Sequence record: NZ_CP024587.1
Strand: one strand, 5' to 3'
Source: a plasmid
Length of the DNA stretch: 64,000 bases
The notes beneath the pieces were generated by a model. The model was not told where the DNA came from. It worked only from the letters and a program-made list of their open reading frames with translations, and did not search any database. Within the stretch, counting starts at the first letter, position 1, and each line of letters opens with the position of its first letter. A program made the translations under genes and the position numbers. Below, in pieces: positions 9,301 through 53,556 of the stretch.

Positions 9301-9581
9301 TTGTCACGGTGGAGGACGAGCACGGCACCGCCAACCTCGTCGTCTACGCCGACATCGCTGCACGCGACCGCGCTGCCCTGATCGGGGCCCGGCTGCTGCT
9401 GGTGGAGGGACGGATCGAGCGTGAGGCCGAGCGGGCCGAGGTGCCGGTCATCCACCTGATCTGCCGCCGATTGGAGGACCGCTCCGACTTGCTCAGAGGC
9501 CTTATGGATGACGATTTCAGCGGTCAAAGGCCCCCGGCTCAATCACCCAAAGGCATGCCAGCAAGCCGGGACTTTCGGTAA
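6339..9581 (+). CDS. dnaE2: Error-prone DNA polymerase DnaE2 (ImuC)
   Basis: 1080 aa. N-terminal PHP domain (MSPAYAELGCRSNFTLLDGAS...) and PolIIIalpha core motifs. The length is typical of DnaE2 rather than DnaE1. Confidence 0.9.
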   Translation: MSPAYAELGCRSNFTLLDGASHPQELVATAAALGHAGLGLCDTNSLAGVVRGHVAAREFDLPYVVGCRLRLDDGAEYLAWPTDRTSYGRLTRLLSLGRMRSPKGECAITREEMLAHAPGWCLAAVSPLRPDLAFADRLQADARALRGVLALPLLCTATVRFDDIDEDRLEALAEMTAVTGTGLLATNDVRYHAPGRRPLADVLTAIRLGRPVDRLGQAAEPNAERHLKPPAEMARLFRDHPDALRSTLRVLDACQGFSLSQLRHEYPDEILEPGRTPQQTLAVRVAEAATARFPRGVSSDIQARLDHELALIGQLDYAPYFLTVDEVVRFARGRGILCQGRGSAANSSVCYVLGITAVDPSKHDLLFERFLSAERAEPPDIDVDFEHERREEVIQFLYRRYGRDRAAIVGTVIRFRGRSAVREVGKVLGLSEDVTGRLAKASWGPGRDDSLVEIAAAEGLDLADRRLRLALELAEEIQDFPRHLATHVGGFVISRGPLIEMAVIGNAAMDGRTVLEWDKNDVEALGLLKVDILALGMLSCLRRGFELLRRHRLADLDLAAVPRDCDETYAMLRRADSLGVFQVESRAQMNMLPRLRPSRFYDLVVQVALVRPGPIQGDMVHPYLRRRWGDEAPVYPSPAPEHGPPDELEKVLGRTLGVPLFQEQAMRVAIVAAGFSPGEADQLRRAMATFKYTQGVAVYRDRLVGGMVRRGYDPELAERVFKQIEGFGSYGFPESHAASFAHLAYASAWLKCHHPAVFAAALLNSQPMGFYAPAQIVRDAQQHRVVVRRLDVNESQWDCTLEPEARSAEGLALRLGLRLAEGLAAEDGKRVAEARRAGNGSPFASVDEVVRRAGVPRRAIEALAAADGFAGMGLDRRTALWDARGVENDTPPLLRLAGQAAAAGEPPLLSEPSSALPAEDDGQAMMLDYVATGLSLRQHPLALLRPRLQALGCRTTRDLDSLRGGARIRLAGLVLMRQRPGTAKGIVFVTVEDEHGTANLVVYADIAARDRAALIGARLLLVEGRIEREAERAEVPVIHLICRRLEDRSDLLRGLMDDDFSGQRPPAQSPKGMPASRDFR

Positions 9582-9587
9582 AGTCTG

Positions 9588-9878
9588 CTTTCCCGCTTTC
9601 GGGAAATCAGTAGAAACCGATGGCACGTTCGGTCTGCCCTACTTGTGGTTTGAGGGACGGTACGTTTCTCCCGGCAGATCATCAGCGGCATCTTAGTCAG
9701 TACAAGCGCCTGATTTCTCTTACTAGTTCACCCGATACCGAGATGTACCAAAGGGCTGTTTCCGGCTTTCCCGAAATAGGGAAATAGCTCTTTAGGGCTA
9801 TCGGGTTTCCGTGAAAGCGGGTTACAACGAAGAAGGTGAGCGGGAAAGCCCGGTTTCACGAAACCGGTGTTTCGGGAG
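9588..9878. promoter_or_regulatory. Operator/centromere-like region upstream of parA with several inverted repeats built on TTTCCCG/CGGGAAA and CCGGTTTC-ac-GAAACCGG
   Basis: TTTCCCG-CTTT-CGGGAAA (9590-9607), TTTCCC-GAAATA-GGGAAA (9767-9785) and CCGGTTTCacGAAACCGG (9850-9867) read directly. The region is AT-richer than its surroundings. Confidence 0.4.
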
Positions 9879-11050: not shown

Positions 11051-11064
11051 ATTGTCTCTCCATA

Positions 11065-12655: not shown

Positions 12656-12704
12656 CGTCCGTCTCGCGGTTGGCGGGTGGAATCACGGTGAAGGATTCCG
12701 AGGA

Positions 12705-21530: not shown

Positions 21531-21845
21531 ATGACGACCACGATCCACAATCTCAAGCGTGAGGCACTGCGGCCGGGCGATGTGCGGATCGACCGCCGCA
21601 CCGAGTTCGGCAATCCGTTCGTGCTGGGGCGCGACGGCACCCGGGCGGAGGTGATCGCGCAGTTCGAGGCCGCCGAGCGCGCGCGGCTCGCCGACCCGAA
21701 GACCGGCGCGGCGCGGCGGGCGAAGGTGCGGGCGATGCACGGCCGGCGGCTTTTCTGCTGGTGCGCGCCGCTGCCCTGCCACGGCAACGTTTACGCCAGG
21801 CTCGCCGCCGAGCTGGTGCAGGCCGAAGGCGAGGCGAAGCCGTAG
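21531..21845 (+). CDS. DUF4326 family protein
   Basis: 104 aa. RRTEFGNPF and CWCAPLPCHGNV match my recollection of the DUF4326 signature. Confidence 0.55.
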   Translation: MTTTIHNLKREALRPGDVRIDRRTEFGNPFVLGRDGTRAEVIAQFEAAERARLADPKTGAARRAKVRAMHGRRLFCWCAPLPCHGNVYARLAAELVQAEGEAKP

Positions 21846-21897
21846 GGCAGGCGGAGGAGAAGGAAACCAGCGGCAGAGAGAGGGGAGGGAGAGGCGA

Positions 21898-21990
21898 GCC
21901 GTCCCGCACCGGGGACGGCCGCCGCAAGGGTTCGTCGGCTGGCGCCTCCCGCGCTGCGCGCGCCCTTGCCCCGGCCGCCCCGGATGCGGG
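21898..21990 (+). promoter_or_regulatory. Hairpin motif copy f
   Basis: Ends 39 bp before ATG 22029 (ardC). Confidence 0.5.
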
Positions 21991-22028
21991 GGCGGGGAGG
22001 TGTTCCGAGAGAATGAAAGGGAACACCG

Positions 22029-23003
22029 ATGGCCCATCCCCGCCGCCAGTCGTCCGAACGCCCGGCGTCCCGCGACCACTACGCCGAGATCACGGCCCAG
22101 GTGATCGCGGCACTGGAGGCGGGCACCCTGCCGTGGCGCCGTCCCTGGGACCAGGACAAGGCCGGCGCCGGTCCGCTCTCGCCGCGCAATGCCACCACCG
22201 GCCGCCGTTATCACGGGATCAACCTGCTGCTGCTCGGCATGACGGGCATGGCCTTCGCCGGCACCGACCCCCGGTGGCTGACCTACAAGCAGGCCGAGGC
22301 GAAGGGCTGGCAGGTCCGCCGCGGCGAGCGCGGCTCGCGCGTGTTCTTCTTCCGCAAGCTGACCCTGCGCGACGGCGACGCCGCGCCGGATGCCGGCGGC
22401 GAGGGGGAGGGGGCCACCCGCACCGTGCCGGTGCTGCGCGCCTACACCGTATTCCACGCGAGCCAGGTGGACGGCATCGCCCCCTTCGAGGCGCCTTCCG
22501 TCGAGGAGGCGTCCTGGCGCACGCCCGAGGCAGCCGGGACCATCATGCGCAACAGCGGCGTGGTGTTCCGCGAAGGCGGCGACCGTGCCTTCTACTGCCC
22601 CGCCACCGACCACATCCAACTGCCCCCACGCGCCGCCTTCGCGAGTCCGGAAGGCTATTGCGCGACGGCGCTGCACGAGCTGGCGCACGCCTCCGGCGCG
22701 ACGCACCGGCTCGACCGCGACCTGACCGGCCGCTTCGGCAGCCAGGCCTACGCGCAGGAGGAGCTGCGCGCCGAGTTGGCCTCCTGCTTCATCGGCGCCG
22801 AGCTGGGCCTGCCCTGCGATATCCCCAACCACGCCAGCTACGTGGCGTCGTGGCTCAGGACGCTGCGCGAGGACAAGCGCGAGATCTTCCGCGCCGCGGC
22901 GGAGGCACAGAGGATCACCGACTACCTGCTGGCCTTCCACCCCGGATACGCCCGGATCGCGGCCGAGGACGCACGGCGCGACGAGGCCGGCGACGAGGCG
23001 TGA
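22029..23003 (+). CDS. ardC: ArdC-family antirestriction protein (N-terminal ssDNA-binding domain + C-terminal zincin-like HExxH metalloprotease)
   Basis: 324 aa, with LHELAHA as the HExxH motif. Confidence 0.8.
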   Translation: MAHPRRQSSERPASRDHYAEITAQVIAALEAGTLPWRRPWDQDKAGAGPLSPRNATTGRRYHGINLLLLGMTGMAFAGTDPRWLTYKQAEAKGWQVRRGERGSRVFFFRKLTLRDGDAAPDAGGEGEGATRTVPVLRAYTVFHASQVDGIAPFEAPSVEEASWRTPEAAGTIMRNSGVVFREGGDRAFYCPATDHIQLPPRAAFASPEGYCATALHELAHASGATHRLDRDLTGRFGSQAYAQEELRAELASCFIGAELGLPCDIPNHASYVASWLRTLREDKREIFRAAAEAQRITDYLLAFHPGYARIAAEDARRDEAGDEA

Positions 23004-24234: not shown

Positions 24235-25753
24235 TACGTAGTCGGCCTTGAACAACGTCTTCAGGCTGTCGCCCCTGCGAGCAGGGTGCGGCCTGTCGGG
24301 ACGCTGGCTTGGCTGATCGGGGTGAGGATTGCCTGTCGGAGGGCGGCGAGGAGAGCGGCCAAAAGGGCCCTGAGGTGGGCGAGGATCTTGCGGATGTTGT
24401 GGCCGCAGCCGCAGAGGACGGCGTAGAGAGCATCGCCGAGCGTGCCCTTGAGGGCGCAGCGGGCGAGGCGGCCATCGGTCTTCATGTGGCCGATCTCGGG
24501 CTCGATGGCGCTGCGGCGGCGGAGCAGCCGGCGCAGGCGGGGCGTGAGGCCGCGGCTGGTGCCGCTGACGAGCACCCTGGTTGCCGTGACGCCATGGCCG
24601 CGGTAGCCGCGATCGACCACGGCGAGGCTGGGACGCTGGCCGGTGAGGGTCTCGACCTGCTGGAGGGCGTCGGCGAGGGTGTGGCCGTCGTAGGGATTGC
24701 CGGGCTGGCTGCGCATGCCGACGACGAAGCCACCGGCGAGGGTGGTGGCGATGCTGACCTTCGTGCCGAACTCGTAGCGCACCCGCGCCTTGCCCTTGGC
24801 GATGCAGTCCACCTCGGGCTCGTGCAGGGCGTAGAGCTTGCGGGACGACTTCGGTGTCTGGAGCAGCAGGCGGGTGACGAGGGCGATGCGCTGCTCGATG
24901 CGCGCCCGCAGTGGCCCGTCAGGGACGGCGCCGAGCTTGCGTTCAACATCGCGCAGGATGCGGCCGGTGTAGCCCTTGAGCGTGCGCAACGCCTTGCGCA
25001 TGCGGCGGAACTGCCGGGCGTGGGCGTAGCGCCCCACCTGGCCGGCCAGGCGCGGCGCCAGGCGATTGTAGTTCTGGCGCAGGGCGATCCCGGCCTTGTG
25101 CGCCAGCGTCACCAGCGAGTGGCGGGCCCGCTCATAGAGGCGGCTGTCGGTCGGATGGGCGATGGCCTTCTCCATCACTGTGGTGTCCACTGCGATCTCG
25201 GCCAAGCTGTTCGACGTCACAGCTCCCGAAGCCTGAGCCGCCTCGATCGTCCTGGTCAGCAACCACTCGACACCTTCCTCACCGATGCGACCGCGCCAGC
25301 GGCTGAGAGAGGAGGGATGGATGGGCGCACGGTGCTGGAAGAAGGTCTCACCCGTGAAGTGCTGGAAGTACGGGTTCTCCACCCAGCGCGCGAGCACCGC
25401 CTCGTCGGAGAGGCCATGGGCGTGCTGGAGGTACATCAGCCCGGCGACCAGACGCGGATGCGTGGCCGGCCGTCCCTCAGCGGCGGGGAAGAAGCCGGCC
25501 CATTCCCGCTCGAACCAGGACCAGTCGATCAGCGCCGCCAGCCGCACCAGTTCGTGCCGCCCATCGATCATGTCGACCAGCCGCGGCCGCAGCAGATCGG
25601 CCTGTTCCGGCGGGCGCGGGCGGTGCTTCATGCCCACAAGATTCGCAGGGTTTGTCGTCGAAAACAATCGAACCCTGCAAATCCAGGTCGCCGAGCCCGG
25701 AAAATCTCACAGCTAGATCAGTGCCTTACGAGTTATTCAAGGCCGACTACGTA
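24235..25753 (-). mobile_element. IS5/IS1182-like insertion sequence, 1519 bp, 22-bp terminal inverted repeats TACGTAGTCGGCCTTGAA(C/T)AAC, no obvious target duplication
   Basis: IRs read directly at 24235-24256 and 25732-25753. One transposase ORF inside. Confidence 0.7.
24261..25667 (-). CDS. DDE transposase, IS5-family (IS1182-like)
   Basis: 468 aa. InsH-like N-terminal region (LLRPRLVDMIDGRHELVRLAALIDW) and a DDE-type C-terminal region. Family call is approximate. Confidence 0.7.
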   Translation of the reverse strand: MFSTTNPANLVGMKHRPRPPEQADLLRPRLVDMIDGRHELVRLAALIDWSWFEREWAGFFPAAEGRPATHPRLVAGLMYLQHAHGLSDEAVLARWVENPYFQHFTGETFFQHRAPIHPSSLSRWRGRIGEEGVEWLLTRTIEAAQASGAVTSNSLAEIAVDTTVMEKAIAHPTDSRLYERARHSLVTLAHKAGIALRQNYNRLAPRLAGQVGRYAHARQFRRMRKALRTLKGYTGRILRDVERKLGAVPDGPLRARIEQRIALVTRLLLQTPKSSRKLYALHEPEVDCIAKGKARVRYEFGTKVSIATTLAGGFVVGMRSQPGNPYDGHTLADALQQVETLTGQRPSLAVVDRGYRGHGVTATRVLVSGTSRGLTPRLRRLLRRRSAIEPEIGHMKTDGRLARCALKGTLGDALYAVLCGCGHNIRKILAHLRALLAALLAALRQAILTPISQASVPTGRTLLAGATA

Positions 25754-26381
25754 TTCTGCGCCGTCGTGCTCGTCTTCAACAACGCCCGGCAGGGCTTTGG
25801 CCGAAAGACCATGGACGAGAGCTGCGGCCCCTGTGAGGTCGACTGCCCGGCCCGGATCATGGCGCTGCTCTCGCCGATCGAGGACATCCCCAATCCTGGC
25901 TACGCAGCGGATTGGCGCGCACGGGTCGCCGCGGCGGCGGCCTTGCGCCGCGAGGCGACCGCCAGCGGCCGGAACCTCGATCCCGGACAGCGGATCAGCC
26001 TTACCCAGCAGATCAGCTTTGACGGCGGGCGGGTCGTCACGAGCGAGTTCGAGGTCGTGCCGACGCCGCCCGGCCGGCGCGGGCCGATCTTCCGGCCCGT
26101 GGGGCACGACTTCCTTTGCCGGGTGCCCCGTCACCTCCTAGCCACGGCGATGCACGTCGCGGGCGGCGCCGCTGACACAGCATCCCGGAGCATGCCGTGA
26201 TCGCCCAGGCGGAGGTCCGGGACGGCAACACCAGCGAGGCGGGCCTGCGCCGCCTACGCCAGTCGGAGAGGACCGAGGCGTACCGGCGGATGGTGCTCAT
26301 CCTCACGGTCGGCAGGAGCGAGACACAACCCGACCTGCTGCTGCCGTGACAGCGGGGCCAGCGTCTAAGCCTCCTGAAAGC

Positions 26382-26640
26382 CTGCAAGCCTGCAAGCCTG
26401 AGTTCGGGAAATCCCGAAAGAGGGAAAGCAGGAAAGCAGGAACGAGAGAATCAGGGGCGAGAAGCTGCTGGCATCCCGGCCGTCCCGGCACCGCTGCGCT
26501 CCATGGCCGGCAGCGCAACCCAGCCCGTCTGGGCCGCAACCCTGCGGGCCGCGTCCTGCGCCGGCCAGGGCCGCTCCCCGGCCATGGTGCCGGCCCGCCC
26601 GCGCTGCCCGCGGCGGAGGGGTCATAGGAACAGACCCACA
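26382..26640 (+). promoter_or_regulatory. Regulatory cassette B: direct repeats (CAAGCCTG x2; GGAAAGCA x2-3), IR TTCGGGAAATCCCGAA, then a ~170-bp GC-rich leader paralogous to 32676-32850
   Basis: Read directly. About 75% identity to cassette C by eye. Confidence 0.5.
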
Positions 26641-26850
26641 GGAGGCTCCATGGGAAACAGGTACGAGGCCTGCCATTCGCACAGCCAGTTCCCCGGCACC
26701 GCCGTCACCGTGACCGCCCCCTGGCCGCTGCGCCAGAGCCCGCCGTCCTGGCTGGCCTGACAGCCTGAGCGGCACCTGAACGGCCCGCTCTCCCCGAAAC
26801 CTCCGCCCCTCCTCCAACCACCGCATCGCACAGGTCACCCGGTCGCCCGC

Positions 26851-29800
26851 ATGGGCCGCCGGGCGGCCGCGCATGCGCGCTCGGGAACCCGCGCCATGGC
26901 CAAGGCCAAGTCCTCCCTCGACCAGCTCAGCCTGTTCGACACCACCGCCCTGACCTCCTTCTCGCTCGACGGCGGCGGCTTCGGTACGCTGCTGCCGCCT
27001 CTCGATGCGACGGAGGAGGAGCCGGACGACGCGCCGATCGCGCCCGCCGTGCCGCGCGTGGTCGCCCACGACTTCCGCCTCGCCGGCGACCGTGGCCTCG
27101 CCAGCAGCTGGAAGGCCCGTGCCGCAGGCAACCTCGCCGCCATCCGGCTGATGCAGCGCATCGAGGCCGAGACGCGTCCGGCGACCGCCGAGGAGCAGGC
27201 GGTGCTGGCGCGCTTCGTGGGCTACGGCGCCTCCGACTTGGCCAACGCGCTGTTCCGCCGCCCCGGCGAGGCATGGCGGGAGGGCTGGGCCGAGCAGGGC
27301 GACGGGCTCGAGCAGGCCGTGTCCGCCGCGGAGCTGGCCAGCCTCGCCCGCTGCACGCAGTACGCACACTTCACCCCCGAATACGTCGTGCGCGCCGTCT
27401 GGGCCGGGCTGACCCGGCTCGGCTTCCGTCAGGGCAGCATCCTGGAGCCCGGTTGCGGCACCGGCCTGTTCCTGGCCCTGCGGCCGGAGGGGATGGCGGA
27501 CTGCTCCACCGTGACCGGGATTGAGATGGACACGGTCACCGCCCGTATCGCGGCGCTGCTCCATCCGAAGGCCTGGATCCGCCAGGAGGACTTCACCCGC
27601 GCCCGTATCCCCGAGACCTTCGACCTCGCCCTCGGCAACCCGCCCTTCTCGGACCGCACGGTGCGGGCCGACGACCCGGCCGGCAAGCTCGGCCTCAAGC
27701 TGCACGACTACTTCATCGCCCGTGCCGTCGAGCGCCTGAAGCCCGGCGGATTGGCCGCCTTCGTCACCAGCCACGGCACGCTGGACAAGGTGGACCCCAA
27801 GGCACGCGAGCACATCGCGGGGATGGCCGACCTGGTGGGCGCGATCCGCCTGCCCGCCGGCAGCTTCGCCGCGGCCGCCGGCACCGACGTCGTGGTGGAC
27901 ATCCTGTTCCTGCAGCGCCGCGAGCGCGGTGCCGAGCCGAACGGGGTGGAATGGGCCCATCTCGCGGAGGTGGTCCCGGCCGAAGCCGGCGAGGCGGCGA
28001 TCCACGTCAACGCCTGGTTCGCCGCGCACCCGGAGACGGTGCTGGGCCGCCACGGATGGACCACCGGCCCGTTCGGCCTGGCCTACGACTGTGCCCGCGA
28101 CGGACGTGACCTGGACGCCGCCCTGGCCGAAGCCGTCGCCCGGCTGCCCCAAGGCATCCACCAGCCGCCGGCGGACGCCGTGGCGGCGCGCCCGGCGAGG
28201 ACCGCCGCCCGGGCCGGCACCGCCGCCGAGGGTGCGACGATCAAGGAGGGCTCCTACCTGATCGGCGAGGGTGGCGTGCTGTTGCAGGTGGTGGACGGCA
28301 CCGCCGAGCCGGTCGCGGTGAAGTCCGGCAAGGGCACGGTCGGCCTGTTCGCGAAGCACGCCCGCATCATCCGCGGCCTGATCCCGGTCCGCGAGGCGGT
28401 GCGCGGGGTGATCCGTGCCCAGGAGGCCGACCAGCCCTTCGGCGCCGCCCAGGTGCGGCTGCGGGCGGCCTATGGCAGCTTCGTGCGCGCCTTCGGGCCG
28501 ATCAACCTCACCAACATCAGCACCAGCACGGATGAGGAAACGGGTGAGGTCCGCGAGACCGTGCGCCGGCCCAACCTGCAGCCCTTCCTCGATGACCCGG
28601 ATTGCTGGCTGGTCTCCTCGATCGAGGAGTACGATCCCGAGACCGGCACCGCCCGCAAGGGGCCGATCTTCACCGAGCGGGTGATCCACGCCCCGGCCGA
28701 GCCGATGATCGTCTCGGCCGCCGACGCGCTGGCCGTGACGCTGGCCGAGCGTGGCGTGGTGGACCTAGCCCATGCCTGCGACCTCCTCGGCCGCGACCGC
28801 GAGACGGTGCTGGCCGAGCTGGGCGACACCGTGTTCCTCGATCCTGACCTGACCACCGAGGGCTTCGAGGCCTGGCAGACCGCCGACGAGTACCTGTCGG
28901 GGCAGGTCCGCCGCAAGCTCGCCGCGGCCCGTGCCGCCGCGACGCTGGATGCGCGCTACGCCCGCAACGTCGTGGCGCTGGAGCGGGTGCAGCCCGAGGA
29001 CCTGCGCCCCTCCGACATCACCGCCCGCCTCGGCGCCCCCTGGATCCCGGCCCGGGACGTCGCGGCCTTCATCCAGGAGGTGATCGGGGTGGAGACGCCG
29101 GTCCGTCACACCGTCGAGGTGGCGCATTGGAGCATCGACGTCCACCGTTTCGTGGGGCTGGCCTCCGCCACCTCGGAGTGGGGGACGCACCGCCGCCACG
29201 CGGGCGAATTGCTGGACGATGCCCTGAATGCCTCGATCCCGCAGATCTGGGACGTGTGGCGGGACGCCGAGGGCGAGCACCGGCAGCTCAACGCCCAGGA
29301 AACCGAGGCGGTGAAGGACAAGCTGGCGAAGATCAAGGACGCCTTCGAGCGTTGGGTCTGGACCGACAGCGACCGCGCCGAGCGACTGGTCCGCCTGTAT
29401 AATGACGCCTTCAACAGCCTGGTTCCCCGGCACTTCTCGGGCGAGCACCTGCAGCTGCCGGGCGCCTCCACGGTGATCCAGCTGCGCCCGCACCAGAAGC
29501 GTGTCGTCTGGCGCATCGTCGCCTCGGGGCAGACCTACGTCGCCCACGCGGTCGGCGCCGGCAAGACCTTCACCATCGCCGCCGCGATCATGGAGCAGAA
29601 GCGCCTCGGCCTGATCTCCAAGGCCATGCTGGCCGTGCCCGGCCACTGCCTGGCCCAGGCCTCGCGCGAGTTCCTGCAACTCTATCCGGGTGCCCGCATC
29701 CTGGTGGCCGACGAGACCAACTTCTCCAAGGACAAGCGCGCGCGCTTCCTGGCCCGGGCGGCCACCGCCAACTGGGACTGCATCATCATCACCCACTCGG

Positions 29801-31968
29801 CCTTCAAGTTCATCGCCGCCCCGGCCGCGTTCGAGCGTGGTCTCGTACAGGACCAGCTCGATGCCTACGCGGCCCTGCTGGAGAAGCTCGATGGCGACGA
29901 CCGCATCGCCCGCAAGCGCATCGAGCGCATGAAGGAAGGCATGCAGGAGAAGCTCGAAGCGCTCGCCTCGGCCAAGGACGACATGCTGACCATCGCCGAG
30001 ATGGGCGTCGACCAGGTGATCGCCGACGAGGCACAGGAGTTCCGGAAGCTCTCCTTCGCCACCAACATGGGCAACCTCAAGGGCATCGCCCCGGACGGCT
30101 CGCAGCGCGCCTGGGATCTGTTCGTGAAGTCACGCTTCGTGGCGACCGTGAACCCGGGCCGGGCGCTGATCCTCGCCTCCGGCACTCCCATCACCAATAC
30201 CCTGGGCGAGATGTTCACCCTGCAGCGCTTCATGCAGCCGGAGATGCTGGAGGAGCGCGGCATCCAGGAGTTCGACGCCTGGGCCGCCAACTTCGGGGAC
30301 ACGCGCACCGAGCTGGAGCTGCAGCCCTCGGGCCTCTACAAGCCGGTGACCCGCTTCTCGGAGTTCGTCAACGTCGCCGACCTGATCGCCATGTTCCGCT
30401 CGGTCGCGGACGTCGTGCTCAAGGACGACCTGCGCCAGTACCTGAAGCTGCCCGCCATCCAGGGCGGCCGGCGCCAGATCGTCACCGCCCCCGCCAGCCC
30501 GGCCTTCCGGGACTACCAGAGCGCCCTCGCGGCGCGCATCAAGGCCATCGAGGCGCGCAAGGGCAAGCCCCAGAAGGGCGAGGACATCCTGCTCTCGGTC
30601 ATCACCGATGGCCGCCATGCCGCCATCGACCTGCGTTTCGTCGTGGCGGAGGCGGAGGATGACCCCGGCAACAAGCTCAACGCGCTGATCGACAACGCCT
30701 TCCGCATCTGGTCGGAGACGCGCGGCAAGGTCTTCCGCAACCCGGACGGCACGCCGCACCCGACCCCCGGTGCCACGCAGATGATCTTCTCCGACCTCGG
30801 CACCGAAGGGGCAGCGGCGACGCGGGGCTTCTCGGCCTACCGCTGGATCCGGCAGCGCCTGATCGGCCTCGGCGTGCCGGCCGAGCGCATCGCCTTCATG
30901 CAGGACTACAAGAAGGCCGAGGCCAAGCAGGGCCTGTTCACCAAGCTGAACAACGGCCAGGTGGATTTCCTGCTCGGTTCCTCGGCCACCATGGGAACGG
31001 GGGTGAACGCCCAACGCCGGCTGGTGGCGCTGCATCACCTCGACGTGCCCTGGCTGCCCTCCGAGATCGAGCAGCGCGAGGGCCGTATCGAGCGGCAGGG
31101 CAACCAGAACGACGAGATCGGCCTCTACGCCTACGCGACCCTGGGCTCGATGGACGCCCAGATGTGGCAGAACAACGAGCGCAAGGCGCGCTTCATCGCG
31201 GCGGCGCTGGGCGGCGACCGCTCGATCCGCCGGCTGGAGGATATCGGCTCCCAGGCGAACCAGTTCGCGATGGCCAAGGCCATCGCCTCGGGCGACCCCC
31301 GCCTGATGCAGAAGGCTGGGCTGGAGGCCGAGATCGCCCGGCTGCAGCGCCAACGGGCGGCGCATTTCGACGACCAGCACGCGGTGCGGCGGCGCGTCGC
31401 CGAGGCGCGCTCGGCCATCGGCCGTGCCACCCAGGCCATCACCGACACCGAGGCGGACCTCGCGCGCCGGGTATCGACCCGGGGCGAGGAGTTCCGCATG
31501 GAGGTGCAGGGCAGGACCTTCGCCGAACGCAAGGAGGCGGGGGCCGCACTGCTGAGGATCCTGCGCACTGTGCAGTTCGAGGGCCGCCAGGGCGATTGGG
31601 AGCTCGGCGCGGTCGGCGGCTTTCCGCTGACGCTGGAGGCCCGCCGTTACCGCCAGGGGGCCGATCTGGACATCCACCTGCTGCTGGGCCGCGCCTACGG
31701 CCAGCAGGAGATCCAGGTGGAGGACGACCTGTCCGCGCTCGGACTGGTGGCCCGGCTCGAATACGCCCTGGGACGCTTCGAGGCGGAATTGGCCGGGCAC
31801 CGGCGGGACCTGGAGGAAGCCGAGCGCCGGCTGCCGGCCTACCAGGCCCGGCTGGGCGACGCCTTCGAGTTCCAGGCCGAGCTGGATGCCAAGCTGGCTG
31901 AAATGCAGGCACTGGAGGCGGATCTGGCGCAGAGTGGCAAGGAGGAGGCGGTTGCCGCGGCGGCATGA
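26851..31968 (+). CDS. Large fusion protein: N6-adenine DNA methyltransferase (NPPF) + SF2/SNF2-like helicase; phage P1 DarB-like antirestriction candidate
   Basis: 1705 aa. MTase motif I EPGCGTGLF and motif IV LGNPPF. Helicase GAGKT, DEAQ, ASGTP and QREGRIERQG. The alternative start is ATG 26896 (MAKAKSS). Confidence 0.85.
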   Translation: MGRRAAAHARSGTRAMAKAKSSLDQLSLFDTTALTSFSLDGGGFGTLLPPLDATEEEPDDAPIAPAVPRVVAHDFRLAGDRGLASSWKARAAGNLAAIRLMQRIEAETRPATAEEQAVLARFVGYGASDLANALFRRPGEAWREGWAEQGDGLEQAVSAAELASLARCTQYAHFTPEYVVRAVWAGLTRLGFRQGSILEPGCGTGLFLALRPEGMADCSTVTGIEMDTVTARIAALLHPKAWIRQEDFTRARIPETFDLALGNPPFSDRTVRADDPAGKLGLKLHDYFIARAVERLKPGGLAAFVTSHGTLDKVDPKAREHIAGMADLVGAIRLPAGSFAAAAGTDVVVDILFLQRRERGAEPNGVEWAHLAEVVPAEAGEAAIHVNAWFAAHPETVLGRHGWTTGPFGLAYDCARDGRDLDAALAEAVARLPQGIHQPPADAVAARPARTAARAGTAAEGATIKEGSYLIGEGGVLLQVVDGTAEPVAVKSGKGTVGLFAKHARIIRGLIPVREAVRGVIRAQEADQPFGAAQVRLRAAYGSFVRAFGPINLTNISTSTDEETGEVRETVRRPNLQPFLDDPDCWLVSSIEEYDPETGTARKGPIFTERVIHAPAEPMIVSAADALAVTLAERGVVDLAHACDLLGRDRETVLAELGDTVFLDPDLTTEGFEAWQTADEYLSGQVRRKLAAARAAATLDARYARNVVALERVQPEDLRPSDITARLGAPWIPARDVAAFIQEVIGVETPVRHTVEVAHWSIDVHRFVGLASATSEWGTHRRHAGELLDDALNASIPQIWDVWRDAEGEHRQLNAQETEAVKDKLAKIKDAFERWVWTDSDRAERLVRLYNDAFNSLVPRHFSGEHLQLPGASTVIQLRPHQKRVVWRIVASGQTYVAHAVGAGKTFTIAAAIMEQKRLGLISKAMLAVPGHCLAQASREFLQLYPGARILVADETNFSKDKRARFLARAATANWDCIIITHSAFKFIAAPAAFERGLVQDQLDAYAALLEKLDGDDRIARKRIERMKEGMQEKLEALASAKDDMLTIAEMGVDQVIADEAQEFRKLSFATNMGNLKGIAPDGSQRAWDLFVKSRFVATVNPGRALILASGTPITNTLGEMFTLQRFMQPEMLEERGIQEFDAWAANFGDTRTELELQPSGLYKPVTRFSEFVNVADLIAMFRSVADVVLKDDLRQYLKLPAIQGGRRQIVTAPASPAFRDYQSALAARIKAIEARKGKPQKGEDILLSVITDGRHAAIDLRFVVAEAEDDPGNKLNALIDNAFRIWSETRGKVFRNPDGTPHPTPGATQMIFSDLGTEGAAATRGFSAYRWIRQRLIGLGVPAERIAFMQDYKKAEAKQGLFTKLNNGQVDFLLGSSATMGTGVNAQRRLVALHHLDVPWLPSEIEQREGRIERQGNQNDEIGLYAYATLGSMDAQMWQNNERKARFIAAALGGDRSIRRLEDIGSQANQFAMAKAIASGDPRLMQKAGLEAEIARLQRQRAAHFDDQHAVRRRVAEARSAIGRATQAITDTEADLARRVSTRGEEFRMEVQGRTFAERKEAGAALLRILRTVQFEGRQGDWELGAVGGFPLTLEARRYRQGADLDIHLLLGRAYGQQEIQVEDDLSALGLVARLEYALGRFEAELAGHRRDLEEAERRLPAYQARLGDAFEFQAELDAKLAEMQALEADLAQSGKEEAVAAAA

Positions 31969-31976
31969 CTGTCCAT

Positions 31977-32016
31977 CCCGAATATCCATATTTTCTGGAT
32001 ATTCGGGATCCGGATC
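31977..32016. promoter_or_regulatory. Perfect 12-bp inverted repeat CCCGAATATCCA-N7-TGGATATTCGGG followed by palindrome GATCCGGATC; candidate brnA operator
   Basis: Read directly. AT-rich, about 100 bp upstream of brnA. Confidence 0.45.
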
Positions 32017-32113
32017 TCGGCCGCGAGGCGCTTGAAGCAGGCAGAGGAGGAGGAACGGGTACGTCTCGTCAGCGCGCGGCGGGCGACCAGGGCGGAACGG
32101 AGGGCCTACGAGG

Positions 32114-32398
32114 ATGGCAGCGATCAGTAAGGAGCAGCGCGAGCGCCTGGAACGGCTGGCCGCCGCGCCGGAGGATGAGATCGACACCACGGACATTCCG
32201 GAAGTCCGGGACTGGTCCGATGCGGTGCGCGGCGGCCTCCACAGGCCGCGCAAGGAAGCCATCACGATCCGGCTGGATGCGGATGTGCTGGCCTGGTTCA
32301 GGGAGCACGTCCAATCGGGCCGGGGCTATCAGACCGAGATCAACCGAGTGCTACGCAAGCATGTGCGGAATGCCGCGAAGGGGGGCAAGACCCTGTAG
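32114..32398 (+). CDS. brnA: BrnA-family (DUF4415) antitoxin-like protein, apparently orphan (no BrnT/DUF497 partner)
   Basis: 94 aa. DTTDIPE...ITIRLDADVLAWFR...GYQTEINRVLRKH matches the BrnA pattern as I recall it. Only 145 bp of non-coding DNA lie upstream. Confidence 0.6.
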   Translation: MAAISKEQRERLERLAAAPEDEIDTTDIPEVRDWSDAVRGGLHRPRKEAITIRLDADVLAWFREHVQSGRGYQTEINRVLRKHVRNAAKGGKTL

Positions 32399-32616
32399 CT
32401 CGGCCTTGGACCGGCCGTGCAAAAAGAAAGGCGGCGCCCGAGGGTGCCGCCCAAGTTTAGGGAGGAAACGTCCAAGTAAGGCGGCAACCCAGCGGGTGCC
32501 GTGTCGCCGCACCCCGCACCATGACCCAGGCTGCCCTTCGGGTCCAATCAAATGACGCGCCGCAGCAGAACGGGCCGAGCCGGTGTCCTCGTGCTCCGCT
32601 CTCATGCCTGGGATGT

Positions 32617-32850
32617 TGGAAAGCCGGAAAGCCGGAAAGCGGGAAATCGGGAAACACGGAAAGCGGGGGAGAGGAGGAGCAGGAGCGCTGGCATCCGGGC
32701 ACCGCCCGGCACCGCTTCGCTCCACGGCCGCCTGCGCAGCCCTGCCCCGCTGGGCCGCAGCCCGCCCTGCCGGGCTGGGCCGCGTCCGGCGACGGGTCAG
32801 GGCCGCTCGCCCGCCGTGGTGCCGGACGGCCCCCGGCCGCCGGCGTGGGA
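32617..32850 (+). promoter_or_regulatory. Regulatory cassette C: six tandem 8-bp repeats GGAAAGCCG/GAAAGCGG/GAAATCGG/GAAACACG then a ~170-bp leader paralogous to cassette B
   Basis: Read directly. Confidence 0.5.
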
Positions 32851-32906
32851 GGGGTCAGCCCAGGAATGGGGTGACGGGAACCCCGGTCCGGAGAGCCACT
32901 CTCGCC

Positions 32907-34673
32907 ATGAAGATCGTCCACGCCAACCCGCGCAAGCTGCGCGACAACCCCGAGAACCCCCGCCGCACCAGGCCGAGCGCGGAGGCCGACGCGCAGTTGC
33001 TCGCCAATATCCAGGCGGTCGGCATCCTGCAGCCGCCCACCGCGCGCGAGATCGCGGGTGAACTGGTCCTGATCGCCGGCCACCGTCGCCGCGACGCGGC
33101 CATCAAGGCGAAGCTGAAGGAGATCGCCGTCCTCGTCCGCGAGCCCGGCGACGACGCCGCGCAGGGCGGCGACGGCGTGCGGGCGCTGGCCGAAAACATG
33201 GTCCGCACCGCGATGAGCCCGGTAGACCAGTGGCGCGCCGTCGAGGCGCTGGTCGGGGAGGACTGGACCGAGGACGCCATCGCAGCCGCGCTGAACCTGC
33301 CGGTGCGCCGCATCCGCGCCCTGCGCCACCTCTCGCGCGTGCATCCGGCGATGCTGGACCACATGGCACGCGGCGACATGCCGACCGACCAGCAGCTCCG
33401 CACCATCGGCCTCGCCTCGGCCGAGGATCAGGCCTCGGTCTGGCAGAGGAGCAAGCCGAAGCGCGGCGAGCGCGCCCACTGGCACGGTATCGCCGCCGCC
33501 CTGGAGAAGCGCCGCATCCCCTTCGCCGTCGCCAGGTTCGGCGAGGCCGAGACCGAGGCCTTCGGGATCGTCTGGCAGGACGACCTGTTCGCCCCCGCCG
33601 GAGAGGAGGGCCGCTTCACCACCCAGCTCGACGCCTTCCTGCAGGCGCAGCAGGCGTGGCTGGAGGCCAACCTGCCAGACCGCGCCGTGCTCCTGGGCCT
33701 CGACGAGTGGGGCCGCGTCATGTTCCCCAAAGGGGCGCAGGAGCTCTACTACAAGCAGCCCCGCGACGAGTTCGACCGCATCGGCCTCACCGTCGATCCG
33801 CGCTCCGGCGAAGTGCGGCAGACGCTGTTCCGGGAGGCACCGCCCCGCGAGGAGCGCGGTGGCCGGGGCCGTGAGGCATCGGCCGATGGCACGGTGCTGC
33901 CCAAGGTCACCCGCCCGCCGCTGACCCAGAAGGGCGACGCCATGGTGGGCGACCTGCGCACCGACGCGCTGCACGAGGCTTTCGCGCAGGCCGAGATCCC
34001 GGACCAGACCCTGATCGGCCTGCTCGTGCTCGCGCTCGCCGGGCAGAACGTGCAGGTCCGCAGCGGCGCCAAGGGCGACGACCTGTACGCCGGAGCGCGC
34101 GCCGCGATCGCCGCCGGCCTCCTCGAAGGCGGCGTGCTCACCGCAGACGCGGACGCCCTGCGTGCCGCCGCCCGCGCCATGCTGCGCCAGGCGCTGTCCT
34201 GCCGGGTGGGCTTCTCCACCTCGGGCCTGGTCGCCCGCTACGCCGGGGTGGCTGTCGATGCCGACGCCTACCTTCCCACCACCGCCACCGAGGAGTTCCT
34301 GGCCCATCTGAGCAAGGACGCGATCATGGGCACGGCCAGCGCCAACAACGTGGCGCCGCGCAACACCGGCAAGGCAACCCGTGCTGCGGTGGTCGAGCGC
34401 TTCAAGGGGCAGACCTTCCTCCACCCGCTGGTGCGCTTCGCGCTGACCACGGAGGAGCAGCGCAAGTTGGCCGAGCAGCGGCAGCGGGAGGAGAGCCGCG
34501 CCGCCCTGCGCGCCAGCTGGCAGTCCTCTGGGGAGGATGATGGGGAGGACGAGAGCTCCGGCGAGGAAGAGACCGCGGGCAACATGGATATGGATGGCGA
34601 GGAGGTGGATCTCCCTACCGATGGCCTCCATCCGCCGTCCGGCAGCCAGCCCCCGGTTGTCCATACCACCTGA
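32907..34673 (+). CDS. ParB/Sulfiredoxin-domain protein (ParB-like nuclease/KorB-like), 588 aa with long C-terminal extension
   Basis: N-terminal MKIVHANPRKLRDNPENPRR...LIAGHRRRDA is ParB-box-like (GHRR). Acidic tail. Confidence 0.7.
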   Translation: MKIVHANPRKLRDNPENPRRTRPSAEADAQLLANIQAVGILQPPTAREIAGELVLIAGHRRRDAAIKAKLKEIAVLVREPGDDAAQGGDGVRALAENMVRTAMSPVDQWRAVEALVGEDWTEDAIAAALNLPVRRIRALRHLSRVHPAMLDHMARGDMPTDQQLRTIGLASAEDQASVWQRSKPKRGERAHWHGIAAALEKRRIPFAVARFGEAETEAFGIVWQDDLFAPAGEEGRFTTQLDAFLQAQQAWLEANLPDRAVLLGLDEWGRVMFPKGAQELYYKQPRDEFDRIGLTVDPRSGEVRQTLFREAPPREERGGRGREASADGTVLPKVTRPPLTQKGDAMVGDLRTDALHEAFAQAEIPDQTLIGLLVLALAGQNVQVRSGAKGDDLYAGARAAIAAGLLEGGVLTADADALRAAARAMLRQALSCRVGFSTSGLVARYAGVAVDADAYLPTTATEEFLAHLSKDAIMGTASANNVAPRNTGKATRAAVVERFKGQTFLHPLVRFALTTEEQRKLAEQRQREESRAALRASWQSSGEDDGEDESSGEEETAGNMDMDGEEVDLPTDGLHPPSGSQPPVVHTT

Positions 34674-34742: not shown

Positions 34743-34840
34743 CTGCCGCATCCGTCCCCCGGCGGCAAGGGTGCGTCGCTGCGCTCCCTCGCTCCGCTCG
34801 CCCTTGCCCCCGGCGGTCCGGAACGCGGCGGCTGGGGAGG
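34743..34840 (+). promoter_or_regulatory. Hairpin motif copy g (CCGCATCCGTCCCCCGGCGGCAAGGGTGCGTCG...CGCCCTTGCCCCCGGCGG)
   Basis: Near-identical to copy h. Ends about 20 bp before ATG 34861. Confidence 0.5.
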
Positions 34841-34860
34841 GATCAAAGTAGGAGAAAGCC

Positions 34861-35058
34861 ATGCGCGCGAGCGAAACCGAACTCGACCGCCTCTGGAACA
34901 GGTGCGCGAGCCTCGCCAACGACCTGGAGGAAGGTCTGTGGTCCATGTTTCCGCGGGAATGGGAAGACATCGCCGGGAAACTGGATGAACTGCTGGGCGA
35001 GATGGAGGAACTGTCTCCGTCCAGACGCCAGACATTCGCGGAAAGCCTCGGCCGCTGA
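34861..35058 (+). CDS. Hypothetical acidic protein, 65 aa
   Basis: GGAGAAAG RBS. Confidence 0.4.
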   Translation: MRASETELDRLWNRCASLANDLEEGLWSMFPREWEDIAGKLDELLGEMEELSPSRRQTFAESLGR

Positions 35059-35523: not shown

Positions 35524-35624
35524 GCTGCCGCATCCGTCCCCCGGCGGCAAGGGTGCGTCGCTGCGCTCCCTCGCTCCGCTCGCCCTTGCCCCCGGCGGCC
35601 CGGAACGCGGCGGCTGGGGAGGGT
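35524..35624 (+). promoter_or_regulatory. Hairpin motif copy h
   Basis: About 95% identical to copy g over about 95 bp. Confidence 0.5.
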
Positions 35625-35693: not shown

Positions 35694-36392
35694 ATGGACA
35701 CCCTGGTTGAGCGCGCCCTGCGCTCGGCAGCCGAGGATCTCGGCCTTTCGCCCGATGGATGGAGCCGGATCCGGGGCGATTCCGGCACGAGCCAGGCCTT
35801 CCGGCACACCGCCCGCCCCGCCCTGGTGGTCGAGGTGAGCATGGATGGGCCCGGATGGAGCTGGACGGCCAGCCTGGCGAAGTCGCATCGCCAGCCCGCC
35901 CTTGGTCCTGCCCAGCCCTGGGCGTGCATCGACGGCCTTGCCGTCCGGGTCAGCCCCAGCCAGCGCGGGGCGCTCCTCGATGCCCTGGCGATCGCCGGCG
36001 ACAACATCGCGGAGGCCAACGCCTGCTCGACCGCGATGCTGCAGACCCGCCTGGACGTGCTGGTCAGCCGTCGCGGTTTCGACCTGTTCGTCGCCCCCGT
36101 GCAAAACCTCGACAGGAGGCAGGCCGAGCCGGCTGCCCCGCTGCGCCTGGATTGGAGCTACCGAGGGCAGACGCCGGACGGCGACGACGTCGCGGGCGTC
36201 GTTCAGGGCGCAGACGAGGCCGAGGCCATCGAGGCGGTCGAGCGCCTCTGGGCCGGCCTCGACCTCATGGAGCTATCACCACGCCTCGCCGGGCTGGCGC
36301 CCTTGTCCTCCGCTGCCCGCCGCTTGGCCGAAGATGGATTGCGGCAGGCGGGAGCCCAGGGGCCCGCATCGGGTCTGCCCGCGCTGCACTGA
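35694..36392 (+). CDS. Hypothetical protein, 232 aa
   Basis: ORF with a GGAG RBS. Followed by a strong palindrome. Confidence 0.4.
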   Translation: MDTLVERALRSAAEDLGLSPDGWSRIRGDSGTSQAFRHTARPALVVEVSMDGPGWSWTASLAKSHRQPALGPAQPWACIDGLAVRVSPSQRGALLDALAIAGDNIAEANACSTAMLQTRLDVLVSRRGFDLFVAPVQNLDRRQAEPAAPLRLDWSYRGQTPDGDDVAGVVQGADEAEAIEAVERLWAGLDLMELSPRLAGLAPLSSAARRLAEDGLRQAGAQGPASGLPALH

Positions 36393-36424
36393 TCCTCCCA
36401 CCCCCCGAAACAGCCATCGGCATC

Positions 36425-36458
36425 GCGAACGGCAGGGCCTGGGCCCTGCCGTTCGCGT
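36425..36458. terminator. Perfect hairpin GCGAACGGCAGGGCC-TGG-GGCCCTGCCGTTCGC followed by GTTT; terminator of the upstream gene and/or operator of the MTase gene
   Basis: Read directly. Only a short T-tract. Confidence 0.35.
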
Positions 36459-36475
36459 TTCAGGAGCCCCGCGCC

Positions 36476-41743: not shown

Positions 41744-42525
41744 GTTAGTCAATCATCCTGGACGCCAGTCGGGCAACCGTTCGGACCCAAGGCTCGCACG
41801 GCGCATCTTCAACGCCTGGCGCATCGGAACCGCCATGCCGATGCCCGACATCGCTCGCCTGCTGGACGTCTGCGGCCATGGGGCGGCTGCCAGCCGGATG
41901 CGCCAGACGGCGCTGGAGGGCGGCAGCAATCCCGGCCTGACCCTCGAAGAAGTCACCGATCTCATCTCCTGCTGGGCGGACGAAACACGGGCTGCGCGAC
42001 GCAACGCCACGCCTTGAGGCGGGCTCGCGGGGTGCCCCCTTTCGCCGCCGTCGACCGCGATCCCGCGGAAAGGATGGCATTGGCGCCGCTGATGCCCGGC
42101 TCCTGACCAGTCCATAGAGGTCGGATCAGGGATAGGATGGAGGGGGAGGAGGGGAATAGAGGAGATTGGAGACGGGCCAGGGGAGATGTCCGAAGGACGA
42201 GAGTGGGGAGACGTGTGTCGGCTACCTGCCCGTGCCGGCCGCATATCCTCGGGGTGCTGCGGTCTGAGCCACGGCGCCGGCCGCTCCTACCCCCGCTTTC
42301 CCCGAAGCCGGGGAAAGCGCCTCCGGCTCGGCACGCTCGGTCAGGGGCCGGGGCCGCGCCTTGCGCGGGGCGATGCCCCGCTGCGGCGCAACCCCAACCC
42401 CCTCCCTCACATGCCTCGGGGGTAGGACCGCCCGCCACCGCGCCTCTGTTCGACCGCACCCGAGGATACGCGACCGGCACGGGCCGGAAGCCTCTTCGGG
42501 GAGAGAGAATGAAGAGGATCTGACG

Positions 42526-46545: not shown

Positions 46546-46812
46546 TGTGTGGATCAGCCTTTCCCTCGCCCCTCTCTCCGGGCGGTAGCAGGACCGGGCT
46601 CCGCCCTGGCACGCCGGCTTAGGGCGACGACCCCGCGCCGCTGGCATGGCGAGTATTCGCTTGGCATTGCAAGTATAGCCGAAATATTCATGCGTCTCGA
46701 TTTGCCCCCGCCATGCCATCGTCTCGGGGCAGCCGCCCACGCCCGCGCACCAGGCCGGAACCCGGTCCTACTACCTGAGAGATGCGCGAGGGAAAGGCTG
46801 ATCCACACAAAC
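46546..46812. repeat. Long imperfect inverted repeat (arms about 70 bp at roughly 85% identity, spacer about 125 bp AT-rich) inside an 800-bp non-coding region; cruciform / MITE-like / structured RNA candidate
   Basis: Left arm GTGTGTGGATCAGCCTTTCCCTCGCC...GGACCGGGCTCCGCCCTGGCACGCC pairs with the reverse complement of ...GCGCACCAGGCCGGAACCCGGTCC...GCGAGGGAAAGGCTGATCCACACAAAC. Confidence 0.5.
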
Positions 46813-53378: not shown

Positions 53379-53556
53379 TTTCGCGGGAGCGCCGCTCGGT
53401 CAGCCGATGTGCGGGTGGCGAGCAGGTAGACAGGCAGCTCCATACACCATTGCACCCTATGTGCGCGGGCCTGCGGCCCGATCCCCTTTCCGACACGTCG
53501 GATTCTCCGTTCGCATGGACCATCGGCAGGCTCTTCCCCGGTCAAAGGAGAGCCCC

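Follow-up and report, generated by a model that had tools for sequence, protein, structure and literature searches.

The question raised by this locus is why one non-coding cassette should stand in front of two different large genes of the same plasmid. The 64-kb stretch of record NZ_CP024587.1 that we analysed (the window) is a segment of a conjugative plasmid with a G+C content of 70%, and the public sequences closest to it are plasmids from Roseomonas and Rhodovastum, in the family Acetobacteraceae (blastn against 72,556 PLSDB plasmids). Within it, a repeat array followed by a long imperfect stem-loop precedes both a gene with N6-methyltransferase (MTase) and SNF2/ResIII helicase domains and a gene for a ParB-like protein. 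Our answer is that the ~150-nt core of the cassette is, on balance, probably a single-strand initiation (ssi) signal of the Frpo/ssi kind, which would act on the transferred strand (T-strand) of this MobF-type conjugative plasmid.

A duplicated non-coding core in a fixed position before two gene families

The duplication described in the original prediction proved to be real, and its parts are as follows.

26470..26608, minus strand: hairpin 1 (MTase-helicase copy), four helices with apical loop 26543-26545, from the consensus structure and column mapping
26615..26624, plus strand: conserved GGAGGGGTCA box of copy 1, just outside the hairpin base, from alignments
26851..31968, plus strand: gene that follows copy 1, N6-MTase with SNF2/ResIII helicase, 1705 aa (Pfam)
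32691..32840, minus strand: hairpin 2 (ParB copy), the same four helices with apical loop 32764-32776
32848..32857, plus strand: conserved GGAGGGGTCA box of copy 2, between the hairpin and the ParB start codon
32907..34673, plus strand: gene for a ParB N-terminal-domain protein, 588 aa (Pfam; NCBIfam PRK13832 family, 603.8 bits)

The two copies (26373-26625 and 32618-32857) lie 6.2 kb apart and share a core of ~160 bp that is 78% identical (77.8% over 171 columns between 26467-26624 and 32687-32857; blastn E 4e-32), and a search of the 64-kb window for a third copy by blastn and nhmmer returned these two alone. The copies differ from each other by indels of 1, 10, 1 and 1 nt, with further indel variation among 31 homologues, and therefore no reading frame is conserved. 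The core is thus non-coding as had been proposed, and a coding remnant of a gene duplication, the scenario set against that proposal, is not what is seen. The cassette also stands before two large establishment genes as described. That it ends just before their start codons holds for the ParB copy, whose hairpin ends at 32840 with the ATG at 32907, but not for the MTase copy, which ends at 26608-26625, 225 nt 5' of the MTase ATG at 26851. There the GGAGGGGTCA box is followed by a Shine-Dalgarno sequence (AGGAGG, 26640-26645) and then by the ATG of a 36-codon open reading frame (ORF; 26650-26760), at a distance of 25-40 nt from the end of the copy.

Homologues were gathered from PLSDB, from an exact-pattern scan of 185,579 species genomes (GTDB) and from a metagenome collection, which together gave 39 copies confirmed by nhmmer; 10 of the 23 metagenome pattern loci were left unconfirmed by nhmmer and were discarded, as they had matched by chance and lay for the most part in coding DNA. 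In all 33 copies whose downstream sequence could be read, the gene directly 3' of the element, and in the same orientation, encodes either a ParB-like protein (23) or an MTase-helicase (10), and none of these 33 has another gene context; contigs carry one or two copies each. In these loci the hairpin base is followed by the conserved GGAGGGGTCA box and then, 20-70 nt on, by a Shine-Dalgarno sequence and a start codon, which in the MTase copies is that of a short ORF preceding the MTase gene. For the ParB-like protein, the alignment of homologues begins at residue 1. The GGAGGGRTC box itself shows no enrichment across the window, where 64 matches with at most one mismatch were expected and 52 were counted, and it is only its conservation among homologues that counts as evidence. 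Among the 72,556 plasmids searched by blastn, the element matched only Roseomonas and Rhodovastum plasmids and none of enterobacterial origin.

The conserved fold belongs to the minus strand

Each core folds from end to end into one imperfect stem-loop of 140-150 nt with a G+C content of about 84%. Folded as DNA, the minus strand was the more stable in both copies, with -57.6 against -49.2 kcal/mol for the plus strand of the MTase copy, and -73.4 (z -3.0) against -61.8 kcal/mol (z -0.4) for the ParB copy. The difference widened in the consensus structure computed by RNAalifold on 23 and then 31 distinct homologue sequences, in which the minus strand reached -70.7 kcal/mol with 46 pairs in four helices while the plus strand reached -35.8 kcal/mol. 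On the minus strand 96.2-96.3% of cells form standard pairs with a covariation score of 0.21-0.22 (23 and 31 sequences), a value reached by none of 500 shuffles, and sliding the partner by 1-3 columns leaves only 32-46% paired. The same pairs read on the plus strand are formed in 86.3% of cells, with two pairs that are always C.A there and G.T on the minus strand in every sequence. Almost all of the strand difference is wobble pairing, as the minus strand holds 111 G.T cells against 3 C.A cells. Compensatory changes were found in 12 pairs (31 sequences). Most of them belong to the basal helix, which varies freely in sequence and has 8 of its 16 pairs changed on both sides; helices 2-4 are almost invariant in sequence.

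Since pairing is conserved on the minus strand and the asymmetry is nearly all wobble, the structure appears to have been selected in a single-stranded minus-strand molecule, and for the strand-specific structure we hold this with far greater confidence than any statement on function. Such selection speaks strongly against a sense 5' untranslated region (UTR) and argues against a symmetric double-stranded site, for which no mismatch type would be preferred. The earlier idea that the ~170-bp leader is a structured 5' UTR or an operator is not supported, as the pairing is conserved on the opposite strand and the core is kept where the repeat arrays are missing.

An invariant GNA mini-hairpin motif in one arm of the stem

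One arm of the stem carries a 10-nt insertion, AGCG(A/C)AGCGG on the minus strand.

26491..26500, minus strand: side element of hairpin 1, 10 nt in the 3' arm, reading AGCGCAGCGG on the minus strand and containing GCGCAGC at 26493-26499
32712..32721, minus strand: side element of hairpin 2, reading AGCGAAGCGG on the minus strand and containing GCGAAGC at 32714-32720

All 31 copies have the heptamer GCG(A/C)AGC, in which only the N of the GNA triloop varies (17 A, 14 C); the plus strand there reads GCT(T/G)CGC, which contains no GNA loop. The d(GCGNAGC) sequence is an extraordinarily stable DNA mini-hairpin composed of two G-C pairs and a sheared G.A pair in the GNA triloop, with a melting temperature of 76 C for N = A and 71 C for N = C, while the RNA forms are much less stable (PMC13037366). 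Motifs of this class have been reported at the phage G4 primase origin, at the N4 virion-polymerase promoters and, as CCGAAGG, at RSF1010 ssiA (PMC13037366). It is the invariance and the placement of GCGNAGC that constitute evidence here, motif counts alone carrying none.

The minus strand is the predicted T-strand

A candidate origin of transfer (oriT) bears on which strand enters a recipient first.

53440..53466, minus strand: predicted oriT nic region, reading GCGCACATAGGGTGCAATGGTGT/ATGG on the minus strand, from sequence, R388 likeness and conservation

In the nic substrate of R388, GCGCACCGAAAGGTGCGTATTGTCT/A, an inverted repeat of 5 bp is followed by about 9 nt of single strand, then by the nick and a purine (PMC4176350). 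The window block GCGCAC(C)-loop-GGTGCAATGGTGT/ATGGA on the minus strand resembles this 25-mer and lies 5' of a small ORF and the MobF relaxase gene. Three further plasmids from Roseomonas, which share only 68-73% identity overall, keep GGGCCGCAGGCCCGCGCACC-loop-GGTGCA(A/T)TGGTGTATGGA unchanged outside the loop, and in the four plasmids conservation ends just past the predicted nick. The arms of the R388 inverted repeat IR2, GCACC/GGTGC, are identical in three of the four, the distal arm of the window being the 4-bp GCAC. The predicted nic thus makes the minus strand the T-strand, which we consider much better supported than the function of the hairpin, and it places both copies in the leading region together with ssb and ardC. 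Given that the plus strand carries nearly all genes from 12.5 to 48.6 kb, the T-strand is also the template of these genes. The element and oriT-mobF are co-oriented in 10 of the 11 PLSDB plasmids that have both, with oriT 17-38 kb downstream in 7 of them. As in F and R388, the relaxase gene would be the last to enter under a minus-strand nick.

On the leading side of the predicted nic, 53290-53400 holds about 3.5 tandem 22-bp units of GCATCGGGCGAGCATCGCGRG together with short inverted repeats (TRF, Tandem Repeats Finder: period 11, 7.2 copies), which likely form a binding array for a relaxosome accessory protein.

A putative initiation signal and its alternatives

We suggest the following pathway. 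Starting from the nic near 53443, the minus strand would enter the recipient 5' first, so that ssb (42 kb) arrives ahead of the ParB-like gene (33 kb), which is followed by the MTase-helicase gene (27 kb) and then by ardC (22 kb). While single-stranded, each element would fold into the long four-helix hairpin with its protruding GCG(A/C)AGC mini-hairpin, and this duplex-like structure, next to which an unstructured pyrimidine-rich tract lies on the 3' side, would be recognised by an RNA-synthesising enzyme, most likely the host RNA polymerase, with a primase as the alternative. RNA synthesis on the T-strand template would then leave the hairpin and reach, within 20-70 nt, the Shine-Dalgarno sequence and the start codon, giving early and transient expression of the ParB-like protein and the MTase-helicase and possibly primers for complementary-strand synthesis. 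Conversion to double-stranded DNA would end the fold. The strand-specific conservation of the structure, its constant position and orientation and the T-strand assignment come from the sequences themselves; that RNA synthesis starts at the hairpin, and by which enzyme, we infer. Transcription is favoured because of the fixed position before start codons, while the mini-hairpin and the Toprim protein encoded by the plasmid keep the primase reading alive.

Several observations speak against this proposal. Neither arm has a readable canonical -35/-10 pair (TTGACA/TATAAT), a consensus that is of the E. coli type and may not be that of the host; the best partial match on the minus strand, TTGCGC-N17-AGCGGT, is devoid of the key -10 bases. 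A consensus promoter scan of 26000-33100 returned no site on either strand, and inspection of both arms by eye in both transcription geometries gave no convincing sigma-70, sigma-54 or extracytoplasmic function (ECF)-like motif. Single-sequence folding is modest (z -1.5 and -3.0 as DNA), as can be expected from the G+C content of the element, and it is weak for the MTase copy both as DNA and as RNA, so the case rests on comparative data. The G.T bias could come partly from C-to-T mutation on a strand that is often single-stranded. The GCGNAGC heptamer is common in this genome, with 103 occurrences on the minus and 46 on the plus strand. Finally, the fixed position beside ParB could reflect conserved synteny and not promoter function.

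We reasoned that a hairpin on the T-strand might instead be a pure priming signal of the ssi or single-strand origin (sso) type, serving to prime the complementary strand through host DnaG or PriA, the DUF3991-Toprim protein of the plasmid (12519-13658) or RNA polymerase, with no role in the expression of neighbouring genes. This explanation shares the strand specificity and the GNA mini-hairpin, whose GCGNAGC class also lies near the G4 primase site and whose relative CCGAAGG occurs in RSF1010 ssiA, and it draws further support from the Toprim gene, from the absence of recognisable sigma-70 hexamers and from the fact that Frpo itself primes DNA synthesis too. By contrast, a priming site does not need a position 20-70 nt before a Shine-Dalgarno sequence and a start codon, which is where all 33 readable copies end in the same orientation, nor paralogous copies before two different gene families, and RepC (3074-4441) is far from the elements at 26.5 and 32.7 kb, which are not origin-adjacent. 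Priming alone is therefore unlikely in our judgement, with a small but real share of the probability.

A second possibility is that the minus strand is selected as RNA, in a transcript, antisense or divergent, by which the mRNA of ParB or of the MTase would be regulated, for instance together with the mmgR-like small RNA (sRNA) predicted at 32414-32489. G.U pairing is equally compatible with RNA, that minus-strand sRNA lies 200 nt from the ParB copy, and a CU-rich, anti-Shine-Dalgarno-like tract follows the hairpin on its 3' side. However, the promoter scan found nothing on the minus strand, the MTase copy has no adjacent sRNA, Rfam models match the element on neither strand, the surrounding genes are nearly all on the plus strand, and the invariant GCGNAGC is far more stable as DNA than as RNA. 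We consider such a transcript quite improbable.

Of the sense-strand 5' UTR of the original prediction (an attenuator, thermosensor or riboswitch-like leader) it can be said that the element lies between a possible upstream promoter and a start codon, and that plus-strand RNA still folds in the ParB copy (-117.6 kcal/mol, z -1.5). Yet the consensus energy on the plus strand amounts to only half of the minus-strand value, pairing drops from 96% to 86% of cells with two positions always C.A, and the plus-strand RNA of the MTase copy has a z of +0.35. The Rfam search, at gathering thresholds and at E up to 5, left the element unmatched and found only the nearby mmgR-like sRNA. A sense leader is very improbable on these grounds.

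The same low weight falls to a double-stranded protein-binding site, in which the arms would be distant inverted sites (operator- or parS-like) for the ParB-like protein or another dimer and the hairpin would be formal. Helices 2-4 are highly sequence-conserved in both arms, the element precedes a ParB-family gene, and inverted sites can mimic covariation. But symmetric sites would not yield arm mismatches of one type (111 against 3), the basal helix varies and yet pairs, with half of its pairs compensated, and the 10-nt insertion is asymmetric, being confined to one arm. A selfish palindromic repeat (of the miniature inverted-repeat transposable element or repetitive extragenic palindrome type) inserted by chance before both genes is barely credible, for a long imperfect palindrome with two or more copies per replicon has only two gene contexts in exact-pattern scans of 185,579 species genomes and of metagenomes, in constant orientation and with one or two copies per contig, the remaining pattern matches being chance matches in coding DNA.

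A bolder form of the proposal, which we regard as rather unlikely, is that the GNA mini-hairpin on its three-way-junction-like stem would be recognised by an enzyme supplied by the plasmid, with the DUF3991-Toprim protein as candidate, and not by the host sigma-70 holoenzyme, and that the 8-bp arrays described below would let a partition protein shut the genes off once they are double-stranded. If this were true, the enzyme would possibly be carried over with the DNA, and priming or transcription in the leading region would be self-contained and host-independent, like the N4 hairpin promoters or the RepB'-ssiA system.

Relation to known single-strand signals

Frpo/ssi elements are T-strand stem-loops in the leading region from which RNA polymerase can transcribe the operons of ssb, psiB, ardA and MTase genes while the complementary strand has yet to be made, and they may give primers (PMC9849209, PMC12672017, PMC11541004). 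Plasmid F has Frpo1 and Frpo2, with 92% identity and at a distance of 5 kb, both located 5' of leading operons and needed for early expression (PMC9849209). Plasmid pESBL has six single-stranded DNA promoters in three classes, one of them 5' of the M.EcoGIX MTase gene, and these are barely active in Sinorhizobium meliloti (PMC12672017). The element described here resembles the Frpo/ssi group (F Frpo1/Frpo2, ColIb-P9 ssi1-3 and pESBL classes 1-3) in its leading-region location, in a fold on the T-strand, the strand that serves as template for the genes downstream, and in a long imperfect stem-loop directly 5' of establishment or anti-defence genes (ssb, MTase, ParB-like). It also resembles the F pair in its paralogy, the copies here being 78% identical at a distance of 6.2 kb. 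By contrast, it shows no apparent sequence similarity to that group, with BLAST matches confined to Roseomonas and Rhodovastum; it has a G+C content of about 84%, with no recognisable TTGACA/TATAAT in its stem; it bears the invariant GNA mini-hairpin as a side branch; its flank is purine-rich (pyrimidine-rich on the T-strand) and not an A+T-rich UP element; and its host is an alphaproteobacterium. The best reading is a new GC-rich Frpo/ssi-like family of Acetobacteraceae plasmids with a putative signal function, which we keep apart from the Frpo family proper because no canonical -35/-10 pair could be read in it and it has no similarity to enterobacterial plasmids.

Primase-dependent ssi and sso sites (the G4 origin, RSF1010 ssiA/ssiB with RepB', ssoA/ssoU) are likewise strand-specific hairpins in single-stranded DNA that work in one orientation, with GNA-type DNA mini-hairpins at or near the initiation site that are thought to be free of SSB, the protein that binds single-stranded DNA. 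Unlike the present element, which always abuts a start codon with RepC far off at 3-4.4 kb, they lie in or beside replication origins, are untied to gene starts, and are shorter (40-150 nt) with other conserved boxes. The early promoters of the phage N4 virion RNA polymerase offer a third likeness, namely a small GNA-triloop hairpin on the template strand of single-stranded or extruded DNA, helped by SSB. However, N4 injects its own T7-like polymerase and uses a 5-7-bp hairpin alone, whereas the mini-hairpin here sits inside a 150-nt stem. No plasmid-encoded RNA polymerase turned up among the ORFs scanned, in a survey that was not aimed at finding one.

GGAAAG arrays share phased boxes with the par locus

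The part of the cassette upstream of each hairpin consists of short tandem repeats, of a kind that recurs at the partition locus.

26373..26444, plus strand: array 1, nine consecutive 8-bp units of the NNNGAAAG type (CCTGAAAG/CCTGCAAG... GGGAAAGC AGGAAAGC)
32618..32667, plus strand: array 2, six 8-bp units (GGAAAGCC GGAAAGCC GGAAAGCG GGAAATCG GGAAACAC GGAAAGCG)
9573..9878: region upstream of parA, GAAA/TTTC boxes at 8-bp spacing, the box type common to arrays 1 and 2

TRF places period-8 arrays before both copies, in agreement with the repeats first noticed there. Array 2 was called at 32618-32664 with 5.9 copies, and array 1 in two parts (26373-26400 and 26416-26442), its nine-unit count being read by eye. 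Array 1 sits in a purine-rich tract directly 5' of hairpin 1 (purine fraction 0.78 against a background of 0.49 +/- 0.07), and array 2 has a purine fraction of 0.82. The GGAAA/TTTCC motifs that had been pointed out 5' of parA are real as well, and clusters of them occur at only five places in the 64 kb (9573-9602, 9759-9812, 10988-11036, 26407-26431 and 32618-32658). In the window, GAAA/TTTC boxes keep a strict 8-bp phase only at 9573-9616 (5' of parA), 26408-26435 and 32619-32662; no such strictly phased array appeared in 100 Markov shuffles or at periods of 6, 7, 9, 10 or 11. A further box cluster (10986-11052) lies 3' of a 134-aa ORF (10574-10978) that follows parA. Its product, a putative ParG-like ribbon-helix-helix (RHH) protein in the original prediction, matches no Pfam or NCBIfam family.

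RHH centromere and operator proteins such as ParG and omega use arrays of short in-phase repeats. The arrays here are like RHH partition arrays (ParG/parH of TP228, the omega heptads of pSM19035) in having short 7-8 bp boxes in phase, and like these and the ArdK and KorA/KorB regulons of IncW and IncP establishment genes in having the same box at the par promoter and before other genes. This likeness is restricted to the GGAAAG arrays and does not extend to the hairpin. We suppose from their sequence and phase that the arrays are probably double-stranded binding sites for a plasmid partition or centromere-binding protein. A box shared by the par promoter and other genes would couple their expression to one small repressor. 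Unlike in those systems, the arrays are confined to this lineage and the putative binder is of no recognisable family. They are found in the window and in plasmid NZ_CP015585.1 (L001) and partly in L008, the other homologues having a purine-rich tract only, and most of the more than 30 plasmids or contigs that conserve the core are without GGAAAGC arrays. The comparison of homologues thus fails to make the arrays part of the conserved cassette, and, judged from that comparison, they are a lineage-specific addition. The operator-array idea of the original prediction accordingly stays plausible for the arrays, which resemble the par locus, and not for the ~170-bp leader, whose structure is conserved on the opposite strand.

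In three homologues (L004, L005 and L007), a conserved A+T-richer block about 60-110 nt 5' of the ParB hairpin replaces the GGAAAGC array of the window. It contains the inverted repeat TGCTGCGCTGCACAAG ... TTGTGCAACGCAGCA and may be a conventional double-stranded promoter or operator.

Other hairpins and non-coding elements

A sliding DNA-fold scan of 11-53.6 kb brought out an unrelated second family of strand-biased hairpins.

42215..42490, minus strand: hairpin directly upstream of ssb, ~270 nt, z -8.9 on the minus against -3.2 on the plus strand

Conserved in L001, L002 and L008, this hairpin is favoured on the minus strand by 10-21 kcal/mol in four plasmids. Its layout is that of the cassette, with a purine-rich tract, a hairpin, a short leader and the gene, and it includes a side hairpin, GCGCTTTCCCCGGCTTCGGGGAAAGCG, that has the GGAAAGC motif of the arrays. 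Minus-biased intergenic hairpins were also found at 46570-46790 (z -8.0), with an A+T-rich apex, and at 47990-48230 (z -4.7). The latter has GCGAAGCGG, GGGCTGCGC and CGCCGGACGCGGC in common with the ParB-copy hairpin, of which it may be a degenerate relative. Plus-strand purine-rich tracts (pyrimidine-rich on the T-strand) precede these hairpins, and the window holds few such tracts. All three minus-biased hairpins count in favour of the proposed initiation signal. A hairpin upstream of ardC (21840-22035) showed no strand bias and was excluded from the support.

Two other non-coding elements lie near the ParB copy. The first is a second duplicated cassette of 99 nt (34743-34841 and 35525-35623), 99% identical and 782 bp apart, each copy being 5' of a plus-strand ORF (34861-35058 and the C5-MTase gene at 35759-38284). 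It forms a hairpin of ~90 nt, carries GGAGCGCAGCG on the minus strand and ends with GGGGAGGGATCA and a Shine-Dalgarno sequence; its single-sequence fold has no strand bias. The second is a full-length match to the Rfam suhB/mmgR (alpha-r8 family) sRNA at 32414-32489 on the minus strand (57.2 bits against a gathering threshold of 41). Its features include a CCUCCC motif and a terminator. It sits in the interval from the MTase-helicase gene to the ParB gene and is antisense to the leading-region genes, and its TTTAGGGAGGAAACGTCCAAG core recurs 5' of the ParB element in L002, L004, L005 and L007.

Gene content of the window

The remaining genes on which the argument touches are these.

3074-4441: RepC (Pfam)
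9885-10562: parA, followed by the 134-aa ORF at 10574-10978
12519-13658: DUF3991-Toprim protein (Pfam)
Between the DUF3991-Toprim protein and ArdC in the gene list: UvrD
22029-23003: ArdC
35759-38284, plus strand: C5-MTase
About 42.5 kb: SSB
53871-56993: MobF/TrwC relaxase, the coupling protein being also in the window

The MTase-helicase has partial NCBIfam matches to the DISARM protein DrmD and to the MADS MTase. Directly 3' of its gene is an ORF for a BrnA-type antitoxin (32114-32398, plus strand; Pfam E 1e-15), for which no obvious BrnT partner was called. Unusual cargo beside the transfer genes includes an ImuB/DnaE2 error-prone polymerase pair (4814-9581) and a full-length MutS homologue (57046-59493, minus strand) between the relaxase and the coupling protein. 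A DDE transposase gene (DUF772/DDE_Tnp_1; 24261-25667, minus strand) between ardC and the MTase cassette looks like a local insertion sequence insertion or replacement; in the syntenic plasmid NZ_CP015585.1 this interval holds a PAPS-reductase-family gene and small ORFs instead.

Implications

Single-strand promoters explain how anti-defence and establishment genes are expressed before a plasmid is double-stranded. To our knowledge, they have been shown experimentally only in enterobacterial IncF and IncI plasmids, and the wider searches known to us relied on similarity to Frpo or on the E. coli -35/-10 consensus. The host genus here, Roseomonas, comprises skin commensals and opportunistic pathogens, many with large plasmids. 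The putative GC-rich alphaproteobacterial family described here is defined by strand-asymmetric covariation and not by consensus boxes, and would offer a tangible case for studying the recognition of such signals in other hosts. It also suggests a computational signature by which they may be found, namely pairing on the T-strand that is biased towards G.T, located in intergenic DNA of the leading region ahead of a Shine-Dalgarno sequence and a start codon.

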